Source: Candidatus Gottesmanbacteria bacterium GW2011_GWA2_43_14
GTDB taxonomy: Bacteria > Patescibacteriota > Microgenomatia > 2-02-FULL-39-11
DNA: 64,000 nt
Reading direction: 5' to 3'
Assembly (NCBI GenBank): GCA_000999095.1
Contig: LCFP01000001.1
Span: 205,680 to 269,679 of the forward strand
The translations under genes were made by a program, and so were the position numbers. The notes under the pieces were generated by a model. The model was not told the DNA's origin. It made no database searches and saw nothing but the letters and a program-made list of their open reading frames with translations. Shown piece after piece: positions 7,941 to 58,323 of the stretch. Numbering within the stretch: position 1 is the first letter of the stretch; each line of letters begins with the position of its first letter.

Positions 7941-8270
7941 TTAAACCAGAGGCTTTTGTGTTCGCTTCCTAACCAATTCACTTATGGCTTTTGCAACTCC
8001 GAAACAATATTTCTCAATAATTAGATTAGGAATATGAATAGTATGGAAATTATCTATTTCAGAGTAGTGTGATCTACCGAAATCCCTTGCGATTTGATCA
8101 GGATCTAAAAAATGGTGCATTCCATCCACTTCAATATAAATTTGTGCGTCAAGAATAGCTATGTCGACATGTTTATGTCCGTCTGAGTATTCATATTCAG
8201 CATTAACGCCCAATCTTTTAAGTTCGTTAAAGAGTTTTTCTGCCTGCGGTGTACTATGTAGATGATTCAT
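7941..8270 (-). CDS. DUF559-like (Vsr/restriction-endonuclease-fold) protein
   Basis: EKLFNELKRLGVNAEYEY...HVDIAILDAQIYIEVDGMHHF...ARDFGRS resembles the DUF559 core (L..L...G..F..Q..IG.Y.VDF.....IELDG..H......D..RD). Confidence 0.45.
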   Translation of the reverse strand: MNHLHSTPQAEKLFNELKRLGVNAEYEYSDGHKHVDIAILDAQIYIEVDGMHHFLDPDQIARDFGRSHYSEIDNFHTIHIPNLIIEKYCFGVAKAISELVRKRTQKPLV

Positions 8271-8288
8271 ATAACTATCTACGATTCT

Positions 8289-8495
8289 TCAGGAAACTGG
8301 AGACTTTTTATAATCCACTCGAATGCATACATCTCTGAAACAAAGAATCATAAGTCTGAGAATCATATTTACTTTTAACTGACTTGTAGCTGTAACTGCA
8401 TTTAAATTACAATCTTTTTTGAAATTAGCCGGTCTTAATATAAACCAATAAAAAGAAAATAGTATTAAACCGATCGTCAGTAAGAACCACATCAT
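8289..8495 (-). CDS. small hydrophobic protein, unknown function
   Basis: 68-aa ORF with one TM helix. Weak support. Confidence 0.25.
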   Translation of the reverse strand: MMWFLLTIGLILFSFYWFILRPANFKKDCNLNAVTATSQLKVNMILRLMILCFRDVCIRVDYKKSPVS

Positions 8496-8516
8496 AATTT
8501 GATTATAATACGAATC

Positions 8517-9032
8517 ATGAAACTATTCTTTAAAATCTTGCATAAAAGATTCTGGACAAGAAATATAATTTTAGTCTGTACACTCTTGGTTTTAACTTCA
8601 ATTCTTATGTATTTGAATCAACCTAAACAATATAGTTTTCTTCCGAAATTTAAAGGCATGGTTTCTGACACGGATAAAACTATTCAAATTTTCGGTCTGA
8701 GGTATTCTTCATACCTGTCCGGCAATTCATCCCCGGCAGAATTTAAAGAGGCTCTTATTAACTTTCAGGATGATTTGATTAGCCTTAATGAAGGATTGGA
8801 GAATTTAAAGCCTAATAAGGAACACCAGGAGCTATACAAACAATACCTGACTGGAATCAGTCTGGTAAAAGGTGTGGTCAAATACAACCTTGAAAACCTG
8901 ACTGATGAAATCCTTGATGCTGATTTAGTGGAGGAAGAACAGGTAAAAATGGAAACAGGATTAAATTTAATTCAACTTACTAAGGAAAAACTAGGGATAG
9001 AATCAACTTCTCAGCCAGAAAGCTTAATTTAA
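8517..9032 (+). CDS. membrane-anchored hypothetical protein
   Basis: N-terminal TM helix (NIILVCTLLVLTSILMYL) followed by a hydrophilic domain. The start is probably the internal MKLFF. Confidence 0.4.
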   Translation: MKLFFKILHKRFWTRNIILVCTLLVLTSILMYLNQPKQYSFLPKFKGMVSDTDKTIQIFGLRYSSYLSGNSSPAEFKEALINFQDDLISLNEGLENLKPNKEHQELYKQYLTGISLVKGVVKYNLENLTDEILDADLVEEEQVKMETGLNLIQLTKEKLGIESTSQPESLI

Positions 9033-9043
9033 GTATTCATGAG

Positions 9044-9697
9044 GTGGTAATATTTAATTATATGGAAATCTTTAAGTCTATACTTAGTTTTATATCTGCT
9101 ATGTTTATTGGAGTCTTCGGATTTATCAATCCTGTCATTAAAATAGCTCCCACACCAACTTTACCACTTTCAATTGGTAATACTTCTGTATCACCTTTAA
9201 TACCTACCACCAATGAGTTTAACTCTAAACCTGTTGATCGTGGAGATGTAATTGGAATAATGGGGAATACAGGAAACGCTTCTAGACCAAAACTACATTT
9301 TGCGGTTTACAATTTAAATGAATCAGATTTGAACAAGTTTAACGCTGATGTCGGACATTTAAACCCTTTTAATTTTCTTCGAAATAAGAAATTATTTTTT
9401 GATTCTGATTCCTGTCACGATGTGAGTAAAAAAATTGAAAAATCAGTCGGAACTGGAAATTGGGATTGGCCAATGTCTAATCCAATAATTTCACAATGTT
9501 ATGGAAATACTCAATTGTCATTAAATAATCCTGATGAAATTAATAATGGAATTGATATGTATGATGATGTCGATACGCTTGTGCGGGCGGTTGAAAACGG
9601 AAATAAATATGTTTATCGTGGCGGAGCTTCTGAAGGAAATGGGGTATTAATTTTTCACTCTGACGGTAAAATGAGTCTTTATTGGCACCTTCAATAA
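9044..9697 (+). CDS. circularly permuted, degenerate M23/LytM-domain protein (signal-anchored). Paralog of the EnvC-like protein at 26640.
   Basis: GDVIGIMGNTGNASRPKLHFAVY precedes GNWDWPMSNP...INNGIDMYDD...SLYWHLQ-stop. The HxH motif is reduced to KLHF and the HxxxD motif to NNGID, so two metal ligands are lost. Confidence 0.6.
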   Translation: MVIFNYMEIFKSILSFISAMFIGVFGFINPVIKIAPTPTLPLSIGNTSVSPLIPTTNEFNSKPVDRGDVIGIMGNTGNASRPKLHFAVYNLNESDLNKFNADVGHLNPFNFLRNKKLFFDSDSCHDVSKKIEKSVGTGNWDWPMSNPIISQCYGNTQLSLNNPDEINNGIDMYDDVDTLVRAVENGNKYVYRGGASEGNGVLIFHSDGKMSLYWHLQ

Positions 9698-9826
9698 TTA
9701 ATAACAACATAATCTTGATTTAAGAAATAAATATTTCATATAAAATTACCTTTACAATCGGACAACACAATATGATCAAATTAATAAATTTAGTAATAGA
9801 TTATTTACTGGAGTACAATACGGATT

Positions 9827-10432
9827 ATGTATAGCCTATATAAAATATGTACTATTTTATTAACTGCCTCTTTGGCAGTTTTTTTATACTTTTCGCCAGT
9901 TGAAGCAAAACAAGGGTGTTGTTCTAGTCATGGGGGAGTTAATTGTGATGCTGGAGCGCAATCTAATGGTCTAGTAATCTGTAATGATGGCTGGAGGGGA
10001 TCTTCTTGTTTATATTCAGAAATGGTAATGTGTGGTGGTTCATCGAGTAATTCTATAAATATTGCACCTATAAAAGATCAACCAATTCAAATATTACCTT
10101 CATCAACTCCGACTATTAAGAGAATTTATCCAACCTGGACACCAAAGCCCCAACCTACCTTAATCCCTTCTGCAACTTTAACTCCTGATTCAACAAGTAC
10201 TCCATATCCAACATATACTCCTTACCCTACTTATACACCTGTTCAGATGATCTCAGAATATCCTAAACCTTCAGGTTCTATACAGGGTGTTTCAACAGAT
10301 TCTAATACAGCTTCAGGAGATTTTTTTATCGGTTTACTGCTTGTAGGGCTGGCCTGGATTTTTAGAGGTAAAATTAAATGGATATTGAGCTCTCAAGGGA
10401 AATCTGATCAAGAATTACCTCCACAAAAATAG
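9827..10432 (+). CDS. Cys-rich secreted surface protein with Pro/Thr/Tyr linker and C-terminal TM anchor
   Basis: Signal peptide, then a CCSSHGGVNCDAG...C...C...C module. The linker contains PYPTYTPYPTYTP. The C-terminus is hydrophobic (FFIGLLLVGLAWIF). Confidence 0.55.
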   Translation: MYSLYKICTILLTASLAVFLYFSPVEAKQGCCSSHGGVNCDAGAQSNGLVICNDGWRGSSCLYSEMVMCGGSSSNSINIAPIKDQPIQILPSSTPTIKRIYPTWTPKPQPTLIPSATLTPDSTSTPYPTYTPYPTYTPVQMISEYPKPSGSIQGVSTDSNTASGDFFIGLLLVGLAWIFRGKIKWILSSQGKSDQELPPQK

Positions 10433-10655
10433 CGCCCAGTAACTTTTTAAAGTCGTGAGCGGTCTAATTGGAATCAAAAAGCATTTTCGCACATTCCTAC
10501 ATACTATTAACAAATTAATATTTTTTAAATTCGCATACTATATTTAAATATCAGTGTGATACATTTATAGCTTATTGTTACAACATATTTCACATGATAT
10601 TATTCAGGCAAATTTTTATACCTATAGTATTTTTAACATTAACAATTTCATTTAT

Positions 10656-10943
10656 ATGAAAATGAAAAAATATGCATTTATTTTCCTCTTTGTAATATTT
10701 GCTTCATTAATTAAGCCTCAAAATACTTTTGCATATGGTGGTGGTGGTCTTCCTGGATTACCTCCACCTCCTAAACTTAAACTTGTTTGTAATTATGAAG
10801 CTAGAATCATTAGACTAGTTTTCAATCGGACATTCACAATTTTAATACCAAAATGTCATGTCGAAGTTATTAAAGTAAATAATGATGAATTTAAAAATAG
10901 ATGGAATGATTTCATTAAGCGTGTAAGAAATGGTAATAGTTAA
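10656..10943 (+). CDS. small secreted protein, unknown function
   Basis: Signal peptide MKMKKYAFIFLFVIFASLIKPQNTFA, then GGGGLPGLPPPP. I chose the start at the internal ATG (10656). Confidence 0.4.
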   Translation: MKMKKYAFIFLFVIFASLIKPQNTFAYGGGGLPGLPPPPKLKLVCNYEARIIRLVFNRTFTILIPKCHVEVIKVNNDEFKNRWNDFIKRVRNGNS

Positions 10944-10948
10944 TATGT

Positions 10949-12571
10949 ATGGATTTAAACTCTCAAAACGAAGAAAAATATCTATATATTCATAAAACTC
11001 CCACTTGGAAAGTCCGTATACTATATTTTTTTGGGATTATCTCTTGGTTATTTGTAATTTATAGCTATGCTGGTTTGATAGGCATTGATCCTTTCTTTAC
11101 TTGGTATTTTTTACCAATTCTTACCGTTCTATCTTTATATTATCTAATAAGTTGGAGTATTAATGCTTTTTATAAACAATTTAATTTATATAATCATCAG
11201 AGATTAATAAAAACCTATTGGGCATATCATCGAGAGCCATTAGTTGATATATTTCTTCCAATATGTGGTGAAGATATTGAAGTATTAAGGAATACTTGGT
11301 GGCATGTTTTTAATATTTCTTATAAAAACAAAAAAATATATGTACTTGATGATTCTTCGGAAGAGTGTGAAGAGCATCAACAATTAGCAAATTTATTTGG
11401 CTTTAATTATTTTAGTCGTCCCAATAAGGGAGAAAATAAAAAAGCAGGAAATTTAAAATATGCTTATGAACGAACTAATGGAGAATTTATTGCTATATTT
11501 GATGCTGATTTTGCTCCACATAAAGATTTTCTAATTGAAGCTTTACCTTATACAAATAATTATAATGTGGGAATAGTACAGACTCCACAATATTTTGAAA
11601 CGAACGAGAAATTATACAAATCTTCATCACTTGCCTATGCGGCTGCATATCAAGAAGAATTCTTTTATCGTATAATTCAAGTTGCAAGAAACAGATTTGA
11701 TGCTCCTATATGTTGTGGTTCAAATTCAATATTTAGACGAAGAGCACTTATGACAATAGGGGGATTTCGGCAAGTAACAGCAAGTGAAGATTCTCGGACT
11801 GGATTCGCACTACTTTGTAAGGGTTGGATTATCCGTTATATTCCTGTTATTTTAGCCACGGGTATGTGTCCAACTAATGTATATGCTTATTACCATCAGC
11901 AGCACCGTTGGTGTAGAGGACGTTCAGAACTCACTCTTTCTAGGGAATTTATATTTGCTCCTATATCGTTTATCAAAAAACTATGTTATACAAGTGGTTT
12001 TCTTATGTTTTTAATTAGACCATTAAAATTATTTATTTCGTTTCATCTATTTTGGATTTTATTTATATATAATGATACCATTTCTTTAAGTAATTCCTTC
12101 ATATTTTATCTATATTTACTATTTGTTTTTATTCTTGACCCCCTGTTTCATATAGCAAAATTTAAGAAAGAAAACTTTTTAGTAGCTATGATTAAGATTT
12201 ATTCAAGTACCCATGCGATTATTTCGGTTTTAATGAGAAAAACAGTAAGTTGGATACCAACGAATGCTAAACATAAGAAAGTTTCTCACGCTTTTATTCA
12301 AACAACAAATCTTGTTGGTCTTTATTTATTCTTGTATGTAACACTGATATTATTAGCCATTAGGACGGGTGATTTACACTTATTGAATTATGACTATTTT
12401 TCTATTCAGTTTTGGATATTCTGGAATATTTTACTTACAATTGTTTTATTTGTACAATTTTTAAATGTAATTAAAAGTATGAAATATAGTAAGAATGATA
12501 ATAGTTTTTCAAATCAATATAAACGAATTAATCTACTTCCAAAGTTAGATTTAGATATTGCCTCCTATTAA
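10949..12571 (+). CDS. family-2 processive beta-glycosyltransferase, cellulose-synthase (BcsA/CESA)-like catalytic membrane protein
   Basis: The D, DxD, ED, QxxRW quartet is present: VLDDSS, IFDADF, TASEDSRTGF, QQHRWCRG. TM helices flank the catalytic domain. Confidence 0.8.
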   Translation: MDLNSQNEEKYLYIHKTPTWKVRILYFFGIISWLFVIYSYAGLIGIDPFFTWYFLPILTVLSLYYLISWSINAFYKQFNLYNHQRLIKTYWAYHREPLVDIFLPICGEDIEVLRNTWWHVFNISYKNKKIYVLDDSSEECEEHQQLANLFGFNYFSRPNKGENKKAGNLKYAYERTNGEFIAIFDADFAPHKDFLIEALPYTNNYNVGIVQTPQYFETNEKLYKSSSLAYAAAYQEEFFYRIIQVARNRFDAPICCGSNSIFRRRALMTIGGFRQVTASEDSRTGFALLCKGWIIRYIPVILATGMCPTNVYAYYHQQHRWCRGRSELTLSREFIFAPISFIKKLCYTSGFLMFLIRPLKLFISFHLFWILFIYNDTISLSNSFIFYLYLLFVFILDPLFHIAKFKKENFLVAMIKIYSSTHAIISVLMRKTVSWIPTNAKHKKVSHAFIQTTNLVGLYLFLYVTLILLAIRTGDLHLLNYDYFSIQFWIFWNILLTIVLFVQFLNVIKSMKYSKNDNSFSNQYKRINLLPKLDLDIASY

Positions 12572-12618
12572 TTTTGTACACATTTAAATAATAGGTATTT
12601 TCAGTATAATATCTACAA

Positions 12619-12993
12619 CAATACAAGCAAATATTTCTCGTATTAGCTTCAATTCTTCAGCAAAATCAATATAGAGCTCCAACTCAAACATTCAAACCTC
12701 AACCAACAAAACATATTCCTCCCTCAACAAGAATTCCTCCCATCGAAGAACCACTTCCCACTTATACACCTTTCCCAACTTATACCCCATATCCATCATA
12801 TACACCTGAACCAACTTCTCAACTTAAAACAATATCCCCAAAACCAACCGGTGAAATAAAAGGGGTCTCTACTAATGCTTCTACATATTTTGAAAGGGAA
12901 ATGTCGGGTTGTGTTCAAACCATCCTTACAGTTATGGTGGAACATGACATTTTCAAACACCTCCTTCATATAAAGATAACTACGAACTCGTAA
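12619..12993 (+). pseudogene. remnant (C-terminal-like fragment) of a surface protein paralogous to 9827..10432. No start codon.
   Basis: The in-frame translation PLPTYTPFPTYTPYPSYTPEPTSQLKTISPKPTGEIKGVSTNAS parallels TPYPTYTPYPTYTPVQMISEYPKPSGSIQGVSTDSN of the intact gene. It lacks a start codon and the TM anchor. Confidence 0.4.
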
Positions 12994-13169
12994 TTTTCTT
13001 TGTTCTCCTACTACTGTATCTATAGATTTTTGCATTATTGCTCGTTTTACTGGAAATTTCTTACCTTCTTCGTAAGGTTAATCCATATTTACTTATACTC
13101 AATTTTAAAATAATACACGTATTATCATTAGACGTTAGAAATGACTTTGTTTTTGGTATAATCCGGATA

Positions 13170-13493
13170 ATGAGGAATAATCTTCGGCAGTTACGACTAG
13201 AATATCACATGCTTCAGGATCACTTAGGGAAAAAAGTAGATCTCACAAGACAATCAATTATATCTATAGAAAAAGGAAAGACTGCTCCTTCACTTAAGAC
13301 CGCCTTTAAAATAGCCCAATTTTTTAATAGAAAAGTTGAGGATATCTTTTTAATAGATAAGGGTATTAAGTCCAGAGGAACGAAGCAAAAAAAAACCACT
13401 TATACAGTAACTATAACTAGTGATTCTCCAATTGAGATAGTAAAAGTCTCACGAAACAGTGGCCATAATAAACACCCATATAAGAATCGGTAG
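13170..13493 (+). CDS. XRE-family helix-turn-helix transcriptional regulator
   Basis: LRQLRLEYHMLQDHLGKKVDLTRQSIISIEKGKTAPSLKTAFKIAQFF is a classic HTH_XRE. I chose the internal ATG as the start. Confidence 0.65.
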   Translation: MRNNLRQLRLEYHMLQDHLGKKVDLTRQSIISIEKGKTAPSLKTAFKIAQFFNRKVEDIFLIDKGIKSRGTKQKKTTYTVTITSDSPIEIVKVSRNSGHNKHPYKNR

Positions 13494-13586
13494 GTGTCTT
13501 TAAAAAGTAAAAAGGCTGAACTCAAATAATGTTATATTAACCTCGGGAACTAGTGATAATCATTAGTTATTGCAGTGAATTCAGAA

Positions 13587-13952
13587 TTACGTTATTTCCC
13601 CATTTGAATCCTCTTTTAAAGTAATCCATAATATTGCCATTCCAGCATCCGGGTCGTTTGTAATATCATTTTGTGTTTTAATATAAATTTCCTTTAATTT
13701 TTCAGCTACCTTAGGTTTATCAATATATTTGAATTGTCCAATATATTGCTTTCCTTTATGGGCGTTTATACTCCCATTACACCAGATGCTATTGAATCCA
13801 CAAGGCGGCCGTTGAGATTCTTCAAATGATTTATCTTTATATACGACTAAATTGATCATGTATTCATACGTAGTATGTTTCATATTGATATCTAATTTTT
13901 CCTCTATTTTTGTAATTCTTCCTTTACTGGTCATGTATTTTCTCCTCAACAA
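13587..13952 (-). CDS. hypothetical protein
   Basis: 121-aa ORF, no recognisable motif. Confidence 0.3.
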   Translation of the reverse strand: MLRRKYMTSKGRITKIEEKLDINMKHTTYEYMINLVVYKDKSFEESQRPPCGFNSIWCNGSINAHKGKQYIGQFKYIDKPKVAEKLKEIYIKTQNDITNDPDAGMAILWITLKEDSNGEIT

Positions 13953-14063
13953 TTTTTTCTATCTTTTCCAATCTATCTTCAATTTCAGATTTTTCATGAG
14001 CGTCAGGAAAGCAACGAATTAGGAAACCAATCGAAATGTAACGAATAGTCTCTTTTACTTTTT

Positions 14064-14759
14064 TTACGGGGAATTTTTGACGGCGGTCACAATCAGGCGC
14101 TTGCTGTCGGCATAGCCTGAACAGGTATAGAGGGTAAGAATGGAACTGTCAGTCGGCCCGATAACTTCCGTTTGGCTGGGTAAAACTTCCTTTATTTCCG
14201 CAACGGTGTAGGAATACCAGGCGTCAGCTGTCAGAACCAGGACGCTTTCTCCGGTCTTAATCTCTTTTAAAGGCAGAAACAATCCCTGCCTGGCATGAGC
14301 GAAAATAACCGTGTTGCCGGTCTCATCAGGATAAGCTGATCCTAAACCGAAACCGGCACTGTCGGGGAAAACTTCCCAGAAGCCGCTGACAATCTTTGCC
14401 TCTTTGACCGGCAGATTGATATTCAGTGAAGGAATGACAATCCTGTTCGGACTCTGCTGCGCTTTGGCAGTGGCTTTCTTCTCCTCCAAAAATTTCTCAT
14501 CTATCTTGACCGGCTCGCTGGCAAAGGATACGGATATCAGTTCGCCGCTTTTTTCATCAAGGATAGGGGCTGTCTTTTTCAGCGACTGCTGGTTTAAGTA
14601 AATGGAGGCCAGTACAAAAAATAAGCCTGATGCTAAAAGCACCAGTCTTATCTTTTTTGTCCTGTCAGCAAGGATCGACTTTAACGTCGGTTTCTTTTGC
14701 CTATAAGGTTGTTTGCGACGTCGGTGTTTAGTTTTGACTTGGCGTACAGCAGCAGGCAT
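14064..14759 (-). CDS. sortase (class A-like cysteine transpeptidase), membrane-anchored
   Basis: N-terminal TM helix. Catalytic His in NTVIFAHAR, TLYTCSG (TLxTC Cys motif), Arg in RLIVTAV. Confidence 0.75.
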   Translation of the reverse strand: MPAAVRQVKTKHRRRKQPYRQKKPTLKSILADRTKKIRLVLLASGLFFVLASIYLNQQSLKKTAPILDEKSGELISVSFASEPVKIDEKFLEEKKATAKAQQSPNRIVIPSLNINLPVKEAKIVSGFWEVFPDSAGFGLGSAYPDETGNTVIFAHARQGLFLPLKEIKTGESVLVLTADAWYSYTVAEIKEVLPSQTEVIGPTDSSILTLYTCSGYADSKRLIVTAVKNSP

Positions 14760-15235: not shown

Positions 15236-17580
15236 AGAATTACTTCTAAAATATTGTTAAGATAAACCGTCAAATCGATATTGACTTTTTTCCTTCTTCT
15301 CCAGTAAAGCATAAACAAAGCCAGCGGCAGGACGGCCAGCCAGCTGCTGGTGACCCTGAGTGAAACGCCTCCCAAAAGGATACCCGGGAATGTTGCCTGG
15401 GTGGCTTTGGCGAAATTATTTGACAGGAAAAGGCCTCTTCTTAAAACTCTTGCCTCTGAATCCGCAGTCGTACCTGTCGGAGAAGGAGTTGCCGTCACAT
15501 AATTTCTCAATACATATGTCCTGTACCTCTGGTAATTGACATTATTGACAGCCGCAACATACTCCTCAGGGTAATAGCTCTCGCCGCCGGATGAGGCAGG
15601 ATATTCATAATAATAACCCTGGTTTTGGACATAGGGTGTATAGTCAAAGTCTGTCGTCTGGTCTACTGTAATGTCCAAATCCGGTAAAGGCTGGATGGTC
15701 GGCAAAGGAGACAAAGTCGGCAGGGCATCGGGGACTCCTCCCTGGTTATAGCCGTTATTCGTTTGTTCTGTACTGTCGCCATATCCGGTTGGAATGACAT
15801 TGCCCAGGAAATCACCGATAACATTCACCAAAAGGACGACGATTTTTTTGGCTGTGACATTGGTATTGGCCAGATTGACCAAATTCAGGGCAGTGTCGGC
15901 ATCTCCGGTTGAAATGACACCGGCGCCGGTATTGTATGTAGCCTGATTGTTGCCGGTATCGGCACTGGCCGTAATATTATTGGTGATGTCTGCGTTATTG
16001 TTATTCTCAACTGTAGTCGACTCATTGGTCGATATAGTAGAAACATCAGTCGAATAAGGTCCTGTAACATCATTTCCGGCATAAACAGAGAAGCTTTGTT
16101 CTCCGGCTCCGGCTGTTTCCGTGGCGACAGACAGTCCGTTGGAAGCGGAACCGACTCCCGGCAGTTGTCCGAGGATATGCCCAACCCATCGTCCTGCTTC
16201 ATTGACAATGACCATCCAAACCGTATCTTCAACGCTGGTAACATTCTGATTGGCCACCGTCGAATTAGCAACAGCAGCATCGGCATTGCCTGATACCACC
16301 ATGCCGCCTCCGGTATTGACCGAAGCGGTATTGTTGCCGGTATTGGCGGAAACATCCAAACTGCTTACGATGTCGGCATTGTTTATATTGGTGAACTCGG
16401 CCGTAGTATTGGAGGTATAGGAAGAATAATTGTCAGACATCGGCCCGGTGGCCTCATTGCCGACATAAACTGTTTCTCCCTGGATACTTCCTCCACTGCC
16501 GCCGTTTTCTTGAGGCAGGATAATGTCGCCTAAAAGGGTACCGAAAATATTGACGACACCGAAAAGCCATTGGGCTACATTCAGATTGGTGTTGACCATA
16601 TTGATAATGTTGCCCACAGCTGTTGCATCCCCTGTTTCAATCAGTCCGTTGCCGGTATTGAAGGAGGCTGTATTATTGCCGGTCAAGGCAGCTAAATTTA
16701 TGTCATTTTCAATGGTGGCGTCATTGCCGTTGTTTTCCTTTACCGTAAATGAAGATTGTGAATCAGCAATATTTGAAGACATGGGGCCTGTAACCGAATT
16801 TTGGGAAACGGTCTGCGAAGCATTGACAAATGAATTTAATAGATCACCGTCTGCAAAATTTAAAACAAGATCACCAAAATATGTTCCATAGATATCCATC
16901 ACGGAAAAACCGCCGACTCCGGAAATATTGCTGTTTAATTTATTCAAAAGATTAAGAGTTGAAGTGGTATCGCCTGTGAAAACCTGTCCGTCCAAAGTAT
17001 TTAAGTTGGCGTAATTGAAGCCGGATGAGGTAATAGTGTCAATTTTATTCTGCATTTCAGCCAGATTCTGATTCATAACTTCTAACTTCTTATCTATTAT
17101 TTCCTGGCCGTAATTATTAGAATAAGCACCTGTATTGGTATTTAACGGATCATTGTAACTGCCTGCCTGATAATCGGTACTGCCTAAACTACTGCCTGTG
17201 CCGTCATTGCCTGACTGACTGCCTGATGGCGACTCGGTTCCGGTAGGAGTCACAGTCGCTGCGGAAGCTGAAGGATCACCGGTCGGCAAAGGCTCATATG
17301 TCGGCTGGGGTGATGGATACACTCCGCCGGAGGAAGGACCTGAAGGTGCGCTGGGAGCGGTCGGAGCGCTGGGTCCGGTATAGGTTGAAGGCCCGGAAGG
17401 AGCAGACGGGGCTGTCGGAGCGCTGGGACCGCTCGGAGCCGAACCAGGGCCTTCTGGAGCAGACGGAGCGGACGGCGCAGACGGACCCGCCTGTGCTGAC
17501 ACCACAAACGGGGAAAAAATATTCCCCATTAAAACTGCCGTAACTAATATTAAACTGATCCTTTTTTTAAATTTTTCCAC
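15232..17580 (-). CDS. large cell-surface protein: signal peptide, PSAP-type low-complexity region, three copies of an N/T/G-rich repeat of about 100 aa, C-terminal TM anchor with RRRKK tail
   Basis: GPSAPSAPSAPEGPGSAPSGPSAPTAPSAPSGPS. Repeats containing TGP[MY]S.N...NNADI...A.TGNN.A..NTG.G.I.TGDA. C-terminal VLPLALFMLYWRRRKK. Confidence 0.7.
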   Translation of the reverse strand: MEKFKKRISLILVTAVLMGNIFSPFVVSAQAGPSAPSAPSAPEGPGSAPSGPSAPTAPSAPSGPSTYTGPSAPTAPSAPSGPSSGGVYPSPQPTYEPLPTGDPSASAATVTPTGTESPSGSQSGNDGTGSSLGSTDYQAGSYNDPLNTNTGAYSNNYGQEIIDKKLEVMNQNLAEMQNKIDTITSSGFNYANLNTLDGQVFTGDTTSTLNLLNKLNSNISGVGGFSVMDIYGTYFGDLVLNFADGDLLNSFVNASQTVSQNSVTGPMSSNIADSQSSFTVKENNGNDATIENDINLAALTGNNTASFNTGNGLIETGDATAVGNIINMVNTNLNVAQWLFGVVNIFGTLLGDIILPQENGGSGGSIQGETVYVGNEATGPMSDNYSSYTSNTTAEFTNINNADIVSSLDVSANTGNNTASVNTGGGMVVSGNADAAVANSTVANQNVTSVEDTVWMVIVNEAGRWVGHILGQLPGVGSASNGLSVATETAGAGEQSFSVYAGNDVTGPYSTDVSTISTNESTTVENNNNADITNNITASADTGNNQATYNTGAGVISTGDADTALNLVNLANTNVTAKKIVVLLVNVIGDFLGNVIPTGYGDSTEQTNNGYNQGGVPDALPTLSPLPTIQPLPDLDITVDQTTDFDYTPYVQNQGYYYEYPASSGGESYYPEEYVAAVNNVNYQRYRTYVLRNYVTATPSPTGTTADSEARVLRRGLFLSNNFAKATQATFPGILLGGVSLRVTSSWLAVLPLALFMLYWRRRKKVNIDLTVYLNNILEVIL
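17270..17480 (-). repeat. imperfect tandem 9/18-bp repeats encoding (P/G)SAPS(A/G)P collagen-like low-complexity region
   Basis: gctgggagcggtcggagcgctgggtccggt...gctgtcggagcgctgggaccgctcggagcc. Possible site for length variation. Confidence 0.5.
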
Positions 17581-53436: not shown

Positions 53437-54324
53437 TTAAAAAAGATAAGATCTAATCGTCTTAACCGCTTTTGCCAGCATTTGGAACCACCTTAATTCC
53501 GTTCTTTTAATACCTGTCTCGTAAGACCCAAAAACATCCATTATTCTGATATAGATTAAATCCCAGAATGATTTAGGGGCGTCTTTTATAATATTAACCT
53601 TGCTCCTTCTGTCATCACTCCAGATTACCGGAATTTCTTTATATTCAAAACCCGCTATTCTGCCCAAAAACATAAGTTCCGCATCGAATCCCCAGTCTTC
53701 AATCTTAAGATTGGGAAAGAGGGCATCCTTGGCCTCTCTCGAAAAGGCTTTAAAACCGCAGGTAAAATCGCTCACCCAGGTATTCAGGATTAAATTGGAC
53801 AGTAAAGTAAAAGCCTTACCTAAGGATTCCCTGATAAACGGCTGGTGGCGCACAACTGTCGAGTGACTGTTTTTCCGGGTACCGATGATGATGGGAATTC
53901 TTTCTCTTATGGACGGCATAAATTTCCTGACCTCGCTCAGGTCAGTCGACATATCCGCATCCAAAAAAAGAGAATAGTCGGAAGTCGACTCCTTCATTCC
54001 GGCGGCAATGGCATACCCTTTTCCCCTATTCTCCTTATATGAGACAAGTTGCAGATTTACACTAACTCCAGGGATGGTGCTGGTTTTAGCTCCTCCTGGG
54101 ACGGTGGCAGGCTGAACGGAGTGAAGCCATGACTCCTCCCAGGTGGAGCTTTTAATAAACTCTTTAATCTTTTTAACAGTCCCGTCAGTCGAACCGTCAT
54201 CCACAAAGATGACCTTTTCCAGCATAAGTCCGCCCGGCAAGCTGAAACTCGCCAGTGAACTGAAAGTCTTGTCCAGTCTAGCTTCTTCGTTATAAACCGG
54301 TATGACAAGAGAAATTGTTTTCAT
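53437..54324 (-). CDS. GT2 polyprenyl-phosphate sugar synthase-like glycosyltransferase
   Basis: ISLVIPVYNEEARL, FVDDGSTDGT, LFLDADMSTD (DxD). I chose the start at MKTISLV. Confidence 0.7.
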   Translation of the reverse strand: MKTISLVIPVYNEEARLDKTFSSLASFSLPGGLMLEKVIFVDDGSTDGTVKKIKEFIKSSTWEESWLHSVQPATVPGGAKTSTIPGVSVNLQLVSYKENRGKGYAIAAGMKESTSDYSLFLDADMSTDLSEVRKFMPSIRERIPIIIGTRKNSHSTVVRHQPFIRESLGKAFTLLSNLILNTWVSDFTCGFKAFSREAKDALFPNLKIEDWGFDAELMFLGRIAGFEYKEIPVIWSDDRRSKVNIIKDAPKSFWDLIYIRIMDVFGSYETGIKRTELRWFQMLAKAVKTIRSYLF

Positions 54325-54685: not shown

Positions 54686-54864
54686 AAATACCCTTACTTC
54701 ATCTCTAGAAACAGAGCGTCAGTAAGGGCAGAATTAACCTTTAATTTTACTAAACTATCCTATAGTTGTCAATAAAATGATATGGTTAAATTGTTGCATA
54801 GTTAAATTGTTTAAAACCATTCAACCATATAGCAATTCAGCCATAATGTTGATATAATAATTGT

Positions 54865-55232: not shown

Positions 55233-55301
55233 AAAATATTGCTTCATTTTCAAGGTGCAAGGTCCCATCTCTATAACTAATTATTTAGTAATAAGGATGG
55301 G

Positions 55302-55314
55302 ACTAGGACGAGAA
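55302..55314. repeat. left 13-bp inverted repeat (ACTAGGACGAGAA) bounding the GC-rich cassette
   Basis: Perfect reverse-complement match to 56704..56716. Coincides with the switch to GC-rich sequence. Confidence 0.5.
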
Positions 55315-55602
55315 CAGCGAATGCTGGAAAAAAATGTACCGGAATGCGGTACAAAGTAAAAAAGGGGAACCGGCTAACCGATTCAGTTTTTACTTTTTTT
55401 TCAGTTTCTCACTGGTAGAATTGAGTCAGTCCCTGACTCTCTACGGTAGTTCTACGCTACCTTTTTTGGATCACAGCGCCTTTGGCCACTGCATGAAATT
55501 AACCTTTTCTCACATAAGGGATGCTACTCCGAAGAGTGCCCCATAGGTGGGAAGGAGGCTTTCATGCGGTGCCTGAGGCACCTGCAATCCTCTCCCCGAA
55601 GG

Positions 55603-55645
55603 GAGAGAAGAGACCCGTCTCCATTGGGTCTCTTCTCTTTTGTTG
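55603..55645 (+). terminator. intrinsic terminator-like hairpin (GAGAGAAGAGACCC / GGGTCTCTTCTC stem) followed by TTTTGTT on the plus strand
   Basis: 12-bp perfect stem, 9-nt loop, T-rich tail. It lies in a hairpin-rich non-coding stretch 55330..55645. Confidence 0.45.
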
Positions 55646-55647
55646 GT

Positions 55648-56367
55648 CTACGGGCAAGCCCGTGGCCCAACCTCGACACCGGCGCCATCTGTGGCTGCCT
55701 GAAACCGTACCTCGAAGGAGGGGACTTCGGAAGCTCCGAAGGCTTTCTCCTTCTGGTATAGTTCACAGACATTGTGGACGGCATCGTCCGATGGGTAGCC
55801 GCCTGGTACACGCCACGTCCCGGCGTTGATTTGAGCGGTCTGGTCTACGCCCACATGAACGACTGTGATGTCCTGGACTACATCCCAGGTACAAACCCAG
55901 TCACTAGGGCAAGTAGCCTGCACCGTCGCACCAGAAACGCCTCTCCAAACGAAAGCGCAGCTTTCAGTCCCCAACCTCTGAACATCGACACCGGTGAGGT
56001 TCTTTGCCTCTTCAGTCGTTGGGCAAAGCCCGGTGGGCTGGTCGATGGACGGTTCCGATTTTGCGAGTTGATCATTCCCTTGCCCAATCTGTTCTAACCG
56101 ATCTACAATCTGATCCAATACATTCATGTATGGATCCATCGGTTCAGGGGTCGGCTCGGTTTTCGGCAACGCCTCAATAACCTGCTCAGCTATCTCATCA
56201 GGGTTGATCATTTGCTGAGTAGGAATAGCCGCAATAGCCTCATTTATCTGCTCGCCGACCTGGGTCGCTTGGGAATTCATTGCTGCTTCAAGGTCCTGAT
56301 CCGTAGCGACGCAGGCGCTCAAAACGAGGCCTAAAGCGATTAACACGACGTAAACAATTTTCTTCAC
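55648..56367 (-). CDS. lipoprotein of unknown function (GTG start), encoded in the GC-rich cassette
   Basis: MKKIVYVVLIALGLVLSAC has a lipobox LSAC. RBS AGGAGGATAAC before the GTG. Its composition is unlike the rest of the window. Confidence 0.55.
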   Translation of the reverse strand: MKKIVYVVLIALGLVLSACVATDQDLEAAMNSQATQVGEQINEAIAAIPTQQMINPDEIAEQVIEALPKTEPTPEPMDPYMNVLDQIVDRLEQIGQGNDQLAKSEPSIDQPTGLCPTTEEAKNLTGVDVQRLGTESCAFVWRGVSGATVQATCPSDWVCTWDVVQDITVVHVGVDQTAQINAGTWRVPGGYPSDDAVHNVCELYQKEKAFGASEVPSFEVRFQAATDGAGVEVGPRACP

Positions 56368-56703
56368 GTTATCCTCCTCTCACATTCCTAGGTAGGAATA
56401 CGCATTTCTGCGCTCACTATACTCATGTATAGTGACCTAGGTACCTTCTCCCTTTTGGGAGCTTATTTGATTCACTCGTCCGGTTTCATTCCTTTCCTAG
56501 AGGAATGTCCAATTGAGTAAATCAATTTGTGACGGCCTTGCCGTCAATGGCTGGTGAGTGGATAGAGAAACAGTAATTTTCTGGTCCCTCCACCGTCCGA
56601 GGAGCCAAAGTCGTTGCTTTATCACCTCGGAGGTGTAAAACAGCTTTACTGTTCCTTTACCCACTCACCATGAGAGAAGAATTAATTTGATAATTAAATT
56701 AAT

Positions 56704-56716
56704 TTCTCGTCCTAGT
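56704..56716. repeat. right 13-bp inverted repeat (TTCTCGTCCTAGT)
   Basis: Reverse complement of 55302..55314. Confidence 0.5.
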
Positions 56717-56887
56717 TGTTAAAGTGCAAATCAATCTGCAATTTAAACAGACCGCAAAATGGCTTGTTTAAATTATTCGATTGTTTCTCAAGCTTTTTGA
56801 GCTTAAGGTAAAACCCATTCGACTATCGCTCAGGGTTTAACTCTAAGTTCAATTGATGTTCTTTGATTTATTTACAAACTTATTTTT

Positions 56888-57274
56888 ATGAATTATTATC
56901 GAAATATGTTTACGAAATCTGATAAAAACTGGCTGAAAAAAAACTTTGCTACCAAAGATGATCTGAAAAACTTTGCTACCAAAGATGATCTGAAAGATTA
57001 TGCAACAAAAAAAGATCTCATCGGTCTTGCTACAAGTAAAGATATAGAAGAATTAAAAACAACATTCCTTATAAATCTTGAGAAATGGAAAAATGAGCTT
57101 TTTAACAAAATCGATCCAGTCCTGAACCGAGTCAAAACTGCCGAGGAAGAGAATGTCGTTCTCCACTCCCGGGAAGAAGGACGACAAGAAGAACGCAATG
57201 CTCTTGAAGGACGGATCAAAAATCTGGAAGCCATTCATCCTAACAATCGTCATATTCAATCCACCAAGGATTGA
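56888..57274 (+). CDS. hypothetical protein with 9-aa tandem repeats (KNFATKDDL x2, KDYATKKDL, IGLATSKDI) and a coiled-coil-like C-terminus
   Basis: ORF with internal perfect 27-bp tandem duplication. Confidence 0.45.
   Translation: MNYYRNMFTKSDKNWLKKNFATKDDLKNFATKDDLKDYATKKDLIGLATSKDIEELKTTFLINLEKWKNELFNKIDPVLNRVKTAEEENVVLHSREEGRQEERNALEGRIKNLEAIHPNNRHIQSTKD
56939..56992 (+). repeat. perfect 27-bp x 2 tandem direct repeat inside the CDS
   Basis: aaaaactttgctaccaaagatgatctg occurs twice back to back. Confidence 0.8.
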
Positions 57275-57526
57275 ACACAAAAGATATTTTTGATTTCTTC
57301 TAAATATTTAATTTTCAAAGTGCTTGGTACTCTGGTTTTACCCAGAATAAAGCACCGCTTGTACTTGGCGGTGCTTAAGTCAAGATAAAACTGTATATTT
57401 AATATTTCTACAGGCTTTCTTATATTTCATAAATATTTACCGAAAGCCCGATATTAGTCTATCGGGCAGTCATTTAAAGTAGTGAAGTATATCATGCTAT
57501 AGGCTAATTTGTCAATCTTAGTCTAC

Positions 57527-58267: not shown

Positions 58268-58323
58268 TACCTCCACCGTCCCAGGAGAAATATATTCCCT
58301 CCACCTGGGAGGAGGAGTTAAAT

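Follow-up and report, generated by a model that had tools for sequence, protein, structure and literature searches.

A putative long-range bracket around an exchangeable surface-protein gene in a Microgenomates bacterium

Bacteria of the candidate phyla radiation (CPR; Patescibacteria) live as episymbionts, and their surface proteins probably mediate attachment to the host. To our knowledge, almost nothing has been established about the regulation of CPR surface proteins, or about CPR non-coding RNAs. Here, we describe a 64-kb stretch of DNA ("the window") from a 291-kb scaffold of Candidatus Gottesmanbacteria bacterium GW2011_GWA2_43_14 (UV73), a CPR/Microgenomates bacterium from Rifle groundwater, and within it a GC-rich, 1.4-kb interval that carries a lipoprotein gene and is bounded by a perfect 13-nt inverted repeat (IR). 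Comparison with related loci indicates that the IR is a genuine, selected, co-evolving feature that delimits a unit. On balance, we lean slightly toward a reading at the level of RNA, in which structured 5´ and 3´ untranslated regions (UTRs) form an expression scaffold that is closed by a long-range RNA helix. Throughout, coordinates are positions in the window, the lipoprotein unit lies on the minus strand, and L and P numbers refer to the compared loci of relatives.

The 5´ arm of the IR (56704–56716) reads ACTAGGACGAGAA in the mRNA sense, and the 3´ arm (55302–55314) reads UUCUCGUCCUAGU in the mRNA sense; ACTAGGACGAGAA at 55302–55314 is the exact reverse complement of 56704–56716. An initial annotation of the window had therefore located a perfect 13-nt IR correctly, while allowing that the match might be unique noise. 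Taken alone, the IR is indeed statistically ordinary: the window holds 9 distinct perfect IR pairs of at least 13 nt within 2 kb, as compared with a mean of ~4.4 in block-wise shuffles. Its significance comes from comparative evidence only, not from rarity. The closest homologue of the lipoprotein is carried by locus L029, which has an IR of its own at 24–39/1765–1780, with 13 perfect pairs (ACGAGAAACGCAG/CTGCGTTTCTCGT). The 5´ arm of L029 lies directly 3´ of the conserved motif TTGCACYTTAACA, and its 3´ arm lies directly before the conserved hairpin GTCCCATCC...GATGGGA. A second locus, L032 (an NCBI metagenome-assembled genome contig whose 3´ side is independently reproduced by L033), has the same ACGAGAAACGCAG/CTGCGTTTCTCGT arms at positions homologous to those of the window arms. 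When the window arms are set against the L029/L032 arms in an ungapped register, 7 of 13 positions differ, and all seven differences are compensated in the opposite arm. Alternatively, the arms can be described as a 7-nt core common to both lineages, to which each lineage adds 6 nt, on opposite sides and in both arms. Complementary, co-varying sequences flanking a unit are one feature of an RNase III-type processing stalk, and they are found here in the comparison of these two lineages. Both arms also pair with each other in the minimum free energy (MFE) and centroid folds of the window's 1488-nt transcript, and the long-range helix is present in the MFE fold of the full-length L029 unit as well.

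In the window, the enclosed open reading frame (ORF) is the lipoprotein gene (55648–56367), which encodes 239 aa. The gene has a GTG start codon located five bases after a Shine-Dalgarno (SD) sequence, GGAGG, at 56373–56377, and the lipobox is L-S-A-C; the GTG-initiated lipoprotein gene proposed initially is thus verified. The N-terminus, MKKIVYVVLIALGLVLSAC, fits the bacterial lipoprotein consensus [LVI][ASTVI][GAS]C, and NCBIfam lipoprotein models match it weakly. The family comprises ~60 clusters in a collection of 5.8 billion proteins, with a shared architecture: an anchor or lipobox at the N-terminus, a linker rich in P, T and A that varies among members, and a C-terminal domain of ~125 aa that is conserved and contains six cysteines. 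This six-cysteine domain is confidently predicted, and it has no Pfam or PDB match. The P/T-rich linker, together with nearby genes for polyprenyl-phosphate-type glycosyltransferases, CLIPPER and sortase, suggests that the product may be a glycosylated surface protein.

The bracket is kept around a different ORF in L032. L032 retains the motif in its L029 form, the 5´ and 3´ arms, the spacer and the hairpin, all at 92–96% nucleotide identity; it also has one of the RNA modules described below (module B). The L032 leader is homologous to the leader in the window, with a shared GGTGAGTGGGTAAAG...CTCTATCCACTCACC stem and a shared start region, GTGAGAGGAGG-N5-GTG. The ORF enclosed by the L032 bracket encodes 301 aa, has a GC content of 0.61, and specifies an anchor, a PT-rich linker and cysteines; profile comparison with the lipoprotein family found no homology. 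Thus, the scaffold is conserved and the ORF is exchangeable. In L029, the lipoprotein gene is preceded by one more GC-rich ORF, which specifies a membrane protein of 184 aa. The breakpoints of homology between L029 and L032 are not at the arms but 50–190 nt inside them. The initial annotation had called the interval a cassette; this is apt in that the ORF within the bracket has been exchanged in evolution, but not in the sense of a mobile or foreign unit.

The unit has a stable genomic position. An identical lipoprotein gene in an identical context is found on four further contigs, three of which have essentially identical DNA over the region compared. In every relative with enough flanking sequence, the gene order is SpoU, CLIPPER, 0.5–1.5 kb of non-coding DNA, the lipoprotein gene, a spacer of ~245 nt, GT2, GT1 (both glycosyltransferase genes), and a gene for a protein of ~1000 aa. 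The lipoprotein gene is always co-oriented both with CLIPPER/SpoU and with the GT2-GT1-large protein genes, and the arrangement is syntenic in >10 genomes. This order also holds in the window, where it is interrupted by additional genes. Judged by this synteny, the lipoprotein gene is ancestral and vertically inherited in Gottesmanbacteria and related Microgenomates.

Base composition leads to the same view. The GC content is 0.499 inside the IR interval, as compared with 0.35–0.36 in the flanks, and no other long ORF in the window is as GC-rich as the lipoprotein coding sequence (0.55; the runner-up has 0.48). Both the GC shift and the atypical composition of the gene, as originally reported, are thus borne out. 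The broader statement that the interval is more GC-rich than anything else in the window holds against the flanks, but at a length of 1.4 kb the margin is thin (0.503 versus 0.493), and a richer 300-nt stretch lies elsewhere; the right arm, with a GC content of 0.43, is at the window average. Across relatives, the GC content of the lipoprotein gene is 0.49–0.62, versus 0.31–0.44 for the locus, and the GC content at third codon positions is 0.43–0.55 in lipoprotein genes, versus 0.19–0.33 in their neighbors. Since the gene is GC-rich in all relatives, its composition is a property of the family rather than a mark of recent import into this genome. The high GC content appears to belong to the cargo ORFs and their RNA structure, with no sign of recent transfer. 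A horizontally acquired islet would combine genome-restricted composition with broken synteny, and the locus has neither; the earlier suggestion of foreign DNA fails because the orthologues are equally GC-rich and occupy the same locus in all relatives. More generally, in an AT-rich genome, a GC-rich island that ends in inverted repeats is not necessarily mobile.

The arms are flanked by a short motif that recurs at the borders of modules. GCACYTTRAMAA (12 nt) has exactly three matches in the 64 kb, all of them exact, on the minus strand, and within 2.1 kb of one another; we estimate the chance expectation for exact matches to be ~0.06. Each copy in the window follows a hairpin and lies at a module border. 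The first (57312–57323; GCACTTTGAAAA) is upstream of the module that contains the small gene p128, the second (56716–56727; GCACTTTAACAA) lies where the leader begins, immediately before the 5´ arm, and the third (55247–55258; GCACCTTGAAAA) comes directly after a 19-bp hairpin. The motif is found upstream of the lipoprotein gene in the window and in L006, L014, L021, L017, L029 and L030, and also at the homologous leader of L032, which has two copies, i.e., one before the 5´ arm and one after the 3´ hairpin (2253–2264). In L030, the motif is ~65 nt downstream of a consensus promoter (TTGACT-17-TATACT), meaning that the motif is transcribed there and that the position of the arm lies inside the RNA. 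We also considered the motif as a sigma-70 −35 box and rejected this by inspection, since no copy has a suitably spaced −10 element.

Both sides of the ORF are highly structured. Relative to dinucleotide shuffles, the fold of the 5´ leader (56365–56720, mRNA sense) has a z-score of −9.7, and the 3´ arm of the unit (55315–55650) has a z-score of −8.4 when folded as the minus strand and of −9.75 when folded as the plus strand. The spacers between the lipoprotein gene and GT2 in relatives have z-scores of −6.5 to −11.3. The hairpins named in the initial annotation (including GAGTCAG/CTGACTC, GGTGCC/GGCACC, and a 12-bp stem with a T-tract) are all present, and its proposal of a small RNA (sRNA) or structured RNA is plausible, with the arms being conserved structured RNA of the lipoprotein-sense strand. 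Folding of the coding sequence itself, assessed with synonymous shuffles, gave z = −3.2, versus −2.5 to +0.2 in neighboring genes, which is too weak to indicate structure across the whole coding sequence.

The structured leader (56368–56703) is predicted to form a long stem (56552–56576/56646–56670), with the SD sequence sequestered in the closing helix. Three blocks of the leader (56655–56681, 56444–56569 and 56362–56390) are homologous to the L032 leader, and one leader hairpin has the stem CUCCC/GGGAG in the window and, through compensatory change, CCCUC/GAGGG in L032. Downstream of the ORF, a perfect 13-bp hairpin (55604–55638) directly follows the lipoprotein stop codon. Next is module A (55460–55595), a conserved long hairpin RNA of ~130 nt that is 80–87% identical in nucleotide sequence to positions 203–346 of L026. 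L026 is from Gottesmanbacteria RBG_16_37_8, and its GT2 and p128 proteins are only ~60% identical to those of the window. Among 40 predicted module A pairs compared with L026, there are three compensatory changes, three one-sided changes and no broken pairs, and the G-U pairs fit the lipoprotein-sense strand only. A covariance model of module A matches the window and L026 only. Module B (55400–55464) is a 65-nt element with three hairpins (GGUAG...CUACC, GAGUCAG/CUGACUC and CAGU/ACUG). It is 86–88% identical to L029 1622–1685 and L032 2045–2108, and includes a compensatory change from U-A to C-G. Two tandem hairpins resembling intrinsic terminators, with U-tracts, follow at 55335–55384 in the lipoprotein sense; the U-tract ATTTTTTTC(C)AGC is kept in L029. 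Lastly, a conserved 19-bp hairpin (55262–55303) abuts the 3´ arm and aligns with L029 1780–1822, where it holds the SD sequence of GT2. Alignment with L029 runs across the left IR, with window positions 55263–55335 aligning with L029 1748–1820; therefore, the IR is not the edge of an insert. Rfam scans of the window region and of the leaders and spacers of six relatives found nothing relevant; the sole match in the arms is ctRNA_p42d (21 bits, versus a gathering score of 50), which covers only a terminator-like hairpin. A scan for tRNA and tmRNA found none, and RNAduplex comparisons of whole leaders with whole spacers gave uninformative global duplexes. The locus has at least two structured RNA modules that belong to no Rfam family.

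We slightly favor an explanation at the RNA level. The interval would be a vertically inherited expression unit for a cell-surface protein, located ahead of an operon of the protein-glycosylation type that encodes GT2, GT1 and large membrane proteins. Its two arms would be the folded regions on either side of the ORF, namely a 5´ leader and a 3´ UTR/spacer. In the transcript, the sequence just 3´ of GCACYTTRAMAA would pair with the sequence just 5´ of the hairpin that precedes the next gene. This pairing would close the 1.4–1.7-kb unit into a single domain, and the helix would stack on the hairpin. Such a helix could serve as a processing or stability stalk (RNase III-type, like the stems of rRNA operons or of intervening sequences [IVSs]), and a further possible role is to link expression of the ORF inside the bracket to that of the downstream operon. 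We infer that the arms are co-transcribed and that they pair in RNA rather than in DNA, and the role given to the helix is likewise inferred.

There are precedents for long-range pairing of this kind. Large stems flank 16S and 23S rRNA and are cleaved by RNase III (PMC6582327), and IVSs in 23S rRNA can carry an ORF (PMC4990558). Such stalks resemble the arrangement here, in which complementary, co-varying sequences located 1.4–1.7 kb apart flank a functional unit. They differ in that the putative stem here encloses the mRNA of a surface protein, consists of only 13 bp plus an abutting 19-bp hairpin, and has terminator-like hairpins before its 3´ arm. Pairing between the 5´ and 3´ ends of an mRNA also occurs in the tac-fbi fold-back of hok mRNA, and the mRNA of the E. 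coli lipoprotein gene lpp is highly structured and stable. In those cases, long-range pairing or dense structure controls mRNA stability and translation, and the cargo here is likewise a lipoprotein; however, the unit has no antisense partner or toxin, is much larger, and keeps its scaffold while the ORF is exchanged. We place the locus among the long-range RNA brackets already known, as a variant form, although the probability that it is instead a switch in DNA is not negligible.

Several observations weigh against a transcript-level helix. First, no promoter was found for the leader in the window. Second, two terminator-like hairpins precede the 3´ arm in the mRNA sense, so the 3´ arm would be present in the RNA only after read-through. 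Third, the comparative evidence for the IR comes from two independent lineages only (the window, and L029/L032). In a comparison of ten other relatives, none has a flanking IR above the shuffled expectation, and other relatives have, at most, short conserved complementarity between leader and spacer instead. Fourth, none of the 26 pairs in the helices of the two lineages is a G-U pair; perfect Watson-Crick helices fit a constraint on DNA at least as well as one on RNA. Fifth, 13 bp is short for RNase III. Lastly, the IR is retained in the window even though hicBA now separates GT2 from the hairpin, which makes a role limited to GT2 coupling unlikely.

The explanation that survives best beside pairing in RNA is a site that acts in DNA, which we consider unlikely but well worth keeping in view. 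The arms would be the crossover sites of a phase-variation inversion (an inverton, Hin/Gin-like) or of a cassette exchange that flips or replaces a promoterless surface-protein unit, and the 12-nt motif would mark the module junctions. Short perfect IRs do flank a complete surface-protein unit, as in the invertons and the Hin, Gin and Cin systems. No promoter was detected inside the unit, and the promoter seen in relatives is upstream of the motif, outside the would-be segment. The two arms change in concert without G-U pairs, the ends are retained around cargo ORFs that differ among L029, L032 and the window, GCACYTTRAMAA recurs as direct repeats on one strand where modules meet (three times in the window and twice in L032), and toxin-antitoxin modules have inserted at the same junction (hicBA in the window and a RelE-like pair in L032). 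However, there is no recombinase in the 20-kb gene table (±10 kb), and none among the listed Pfam matches of the scanned window ORFs. At the level of assemblies, the unit has a single orientation in five independent assemblies of the strain and in every relative. The arm sequence has no further copies in the 64 kb, and it differs between lineages, which is unusual for the recognition sites of a recombinase. Moreover, homology between L029 and L032 breaks 50–190 nt inside the arms. Unlike known invertons, the unit has no invertase that could be found inside it or next to it, was seen in a single orientation, and has an IR sequence that no other locus shares and that changes from one lineage to the other. 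The invertible segment proposed initially has its flanking repeats but no positive support.

A non-autonomous element resembling a miniature inverted-repeat transposable element (MITE), or recently acquired foreign DNA that brought in the lipoprotein gene, the IR being its terminal inverted repeats, is highly improbable. A perfect 13-nt IR does bound a compositionally distinct block, as terminal repeats would, and small palindromic repeat elements exist in the genome. Against this, the flanks (...GGATGGG on one side and TGTTAAAG on the other) have no direct repeat in common, i.e., there is no target-site duplication; the element is present as a single copy in 64 kb; its location is syntenic, with GC-rich orthologues in >10 genomes; homology with L029 continues across the left IR; and the arms differ between lineages, unlike conserved terminal repeats. 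The mobile-cassette proposal of the initial annotation is thereby largely refuted. It is equally hard to believe that the IR arose by coincidence and that meaning resides in the structured UTRs alone: the window does hold 9 perfect pairs of at least 13 nt within 2 kb (~4.4 in shuffles) and most relatives have no flanking IR, but L029/L032 have an independent 13-nt perfect IR of different sequence at exactly homologous positions, for which we estimate odds, at fixed positions, of order 4^-13. An integron gene cassette was considered and rejected, since no integrase was found in the gene table or the ORF scans and the arms are 1.4 kb apart, which leaves no local attC hairpin.

A bolder proposal, which we hold to be rather improbable, is that the bracket as a whole (12-nt direct-repeat motif, co-varying 13-nt IR and structured RNA modules) serves CPR bacteria as a dedicated holder of surface-protein genes. 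One version would be an RNA device that, much like an IVS but acting on an mRNA, excises the enclosed message and protects its ends; the other would be a recombination system, not described before, by which surface-protein ORFs are exchanged or inverted at one set position upstream of a glycosylation operon. The locus offers four leads: a co-varying long-range bracket around an exchangeable surface-protein ORF, RNA modules without Rfam families, a six-cysteine domain, and a palindrome that occurs in frame in a glycosyltransferase gene.

The junction downstream of the unit has received other genes. In L029, the start of GT2 abuts the conserved hairpin, which holds the GT2 SD sequence; in the window, an inverted hicB and a truncated hicA occupy this position. 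Because GT2 directly follows the hairpin in L029, the AT-rich hicBA is the likelier insert. The initial annotation had the GC-rich interval inserted next to a decayed hicAB locus; this order of events is probably the wrong way round. A toxin-antitoxin module is also found at the same junction in L032 (2253–2860), where a RelE-like pair with its own promoter (TGnTATAAT) follows the hairpin and 12-nt motif, as hicBA does in the window (junction at 55233–55262). Sequence comparison at this site makes it likelier that AT-rich toxin-antitoxin modules, and not the GC-rich unit, are the insertions. Upstream of hicB, a tandem repeat (54782–54811) has a 16-nt unit, GCATAGTTAAATTGTT, that is missing in the population variant L002; this is the sole difference in 4.5 kb.

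The tip of the leader stem in the window is formed by a GC-rich palindromic repeat of ~50 nt (56587–56635), one of three copies in the window. The family has the consensus CCTCCACCGTCCsAGGAG...CACCTsGGAGGwG, and its copies are at 54093–54145, 56587–56635 and 58270–58314 in the window, at 785–834 and ~495–540 in L027, at 3073–3126 in L032, and at ~1325–1385 and 1600–1626 in L034. In the window, L027/L028, L032 and L034, the GT2 gene carries the palindrome in frame, as a segment that encodes ...FLHRPRSP...ATSEV...; the palindrome is also found in non-coding spacers. The leader copy is 90% identical to the in-frame GT2 insert of L027/L028, and the GT2 genes of two equally close relatives, P0041 and P0046, are without the palindrome. 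Rickettsia palindromic elements and other MITE-like palindromes also insert in frame in genes. The likeness, i.e., presence in a leader, in frame in GT2 genes and in an intergenic spacer, is limited to this ~50-nt sub-element and does not extend to the 1.4-kb unit; the element is also shorter than its Rickettsia counterparts. In L032 (170–250 and 470–760), the tip of the leader stem carries an insert of ~290 nt, which has inverted arrays of GTTGTAAG/CTTACAAC repeats at its ends, and another array lies upstream. From its sequence features, this insert resembles a MITE-like element that sits where the window has the palindrome.

Relatives have further conserved RNA features around the lipoprotein gene. 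Structured leaders of 0.4–0.9 kb extend from consensus promoters at L030 3460–4000, L010 5470–6000, L006 5380–5700, L014 3950–4250 and L021 700–1000. The long leaders of relatives hold SD-like (AAAGGAGGUGAUAA) and anti-SD-like (CACCUCCUUU) segments, and a conserved leader sequence, UCAGGUUA, is complementary over 6–10 bp to a conserved sequence in the 3´ spacer, UAACCUGA. Just after the lipoprotein stop codon, four loci (L005 6682–6750, L014 5379–5450, L006 6619–6690 and L021 1970–2040) have a conserved pseudoknot-like motif, GUGAAyGU-[hairpin]-CUGUAUAAGU-[hairpin]-CGGsAy-AACCUGmAACCC, which has no Rfam match. The loop of its first hairpin is complementary to the downstream CGGsAy and co-varies with it. 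A three-way junction follows on the 3´ side, and then a hairpin that sequesters the SD sequence or start codon of GT2. The motif may be a cis-regulatory leader of the glycosyltransferase operon.

Genes for four-helix-bundle proteins of the 23S_rRNA_IVP/bAvd-like type recur beside the CLIPPER-lipoprotein locus in relatives (L010 3361–3714; L030 1736–2083 and 2913–3263; L031 798–1139), and not at the locus in the window. The small gene p128 (56888–57274, plus strand) contains 27-nt tandem repeats at 56939–57019 (encoding KNFATKDDL) and has a weak Bdr-like match. In L026, its orthologue is on the other side of the RNA modules, indicating that this small gene has moved relative to the lipoprotein unit. 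The RNA from a candidate sRNA gene of ~135 nt (57345–57515, minus strand) would be antisense-upstream of p128. A promoter close to consensus, TTGACA-18-(TG)TATACT, lies at 57515–57486 and a strong terminator hairpin at 57345–57391; the only Rfam match of this gene, to GcvB, is below threshold (30.6 bits, versus a gathering score of 42).

Elsewhere in the window, two regions stand out in composition. The GC-richest 300 nt (17192–17491, minus strand; GC content 0.66) encodes SAPSGP-type repeats near the N-terminus of a 782-aa protein that has no Pfam match, with a sortase gene (14064–14759) located a little downstream. These repeats indicate that the P/A/S-rich linkers of surface proteins raise local GC content in this genome. 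Conversely, an AT-rich block of ~6 kb at ~8000–14000 has a GC content of 0.29–0.33, versus 0.42 overall. It contains several ORFs without Pfam matches, a Peptidase_M23 fragment, a 540-aa GT2 protein and an HTH_3 protein, and may be an acquired island.

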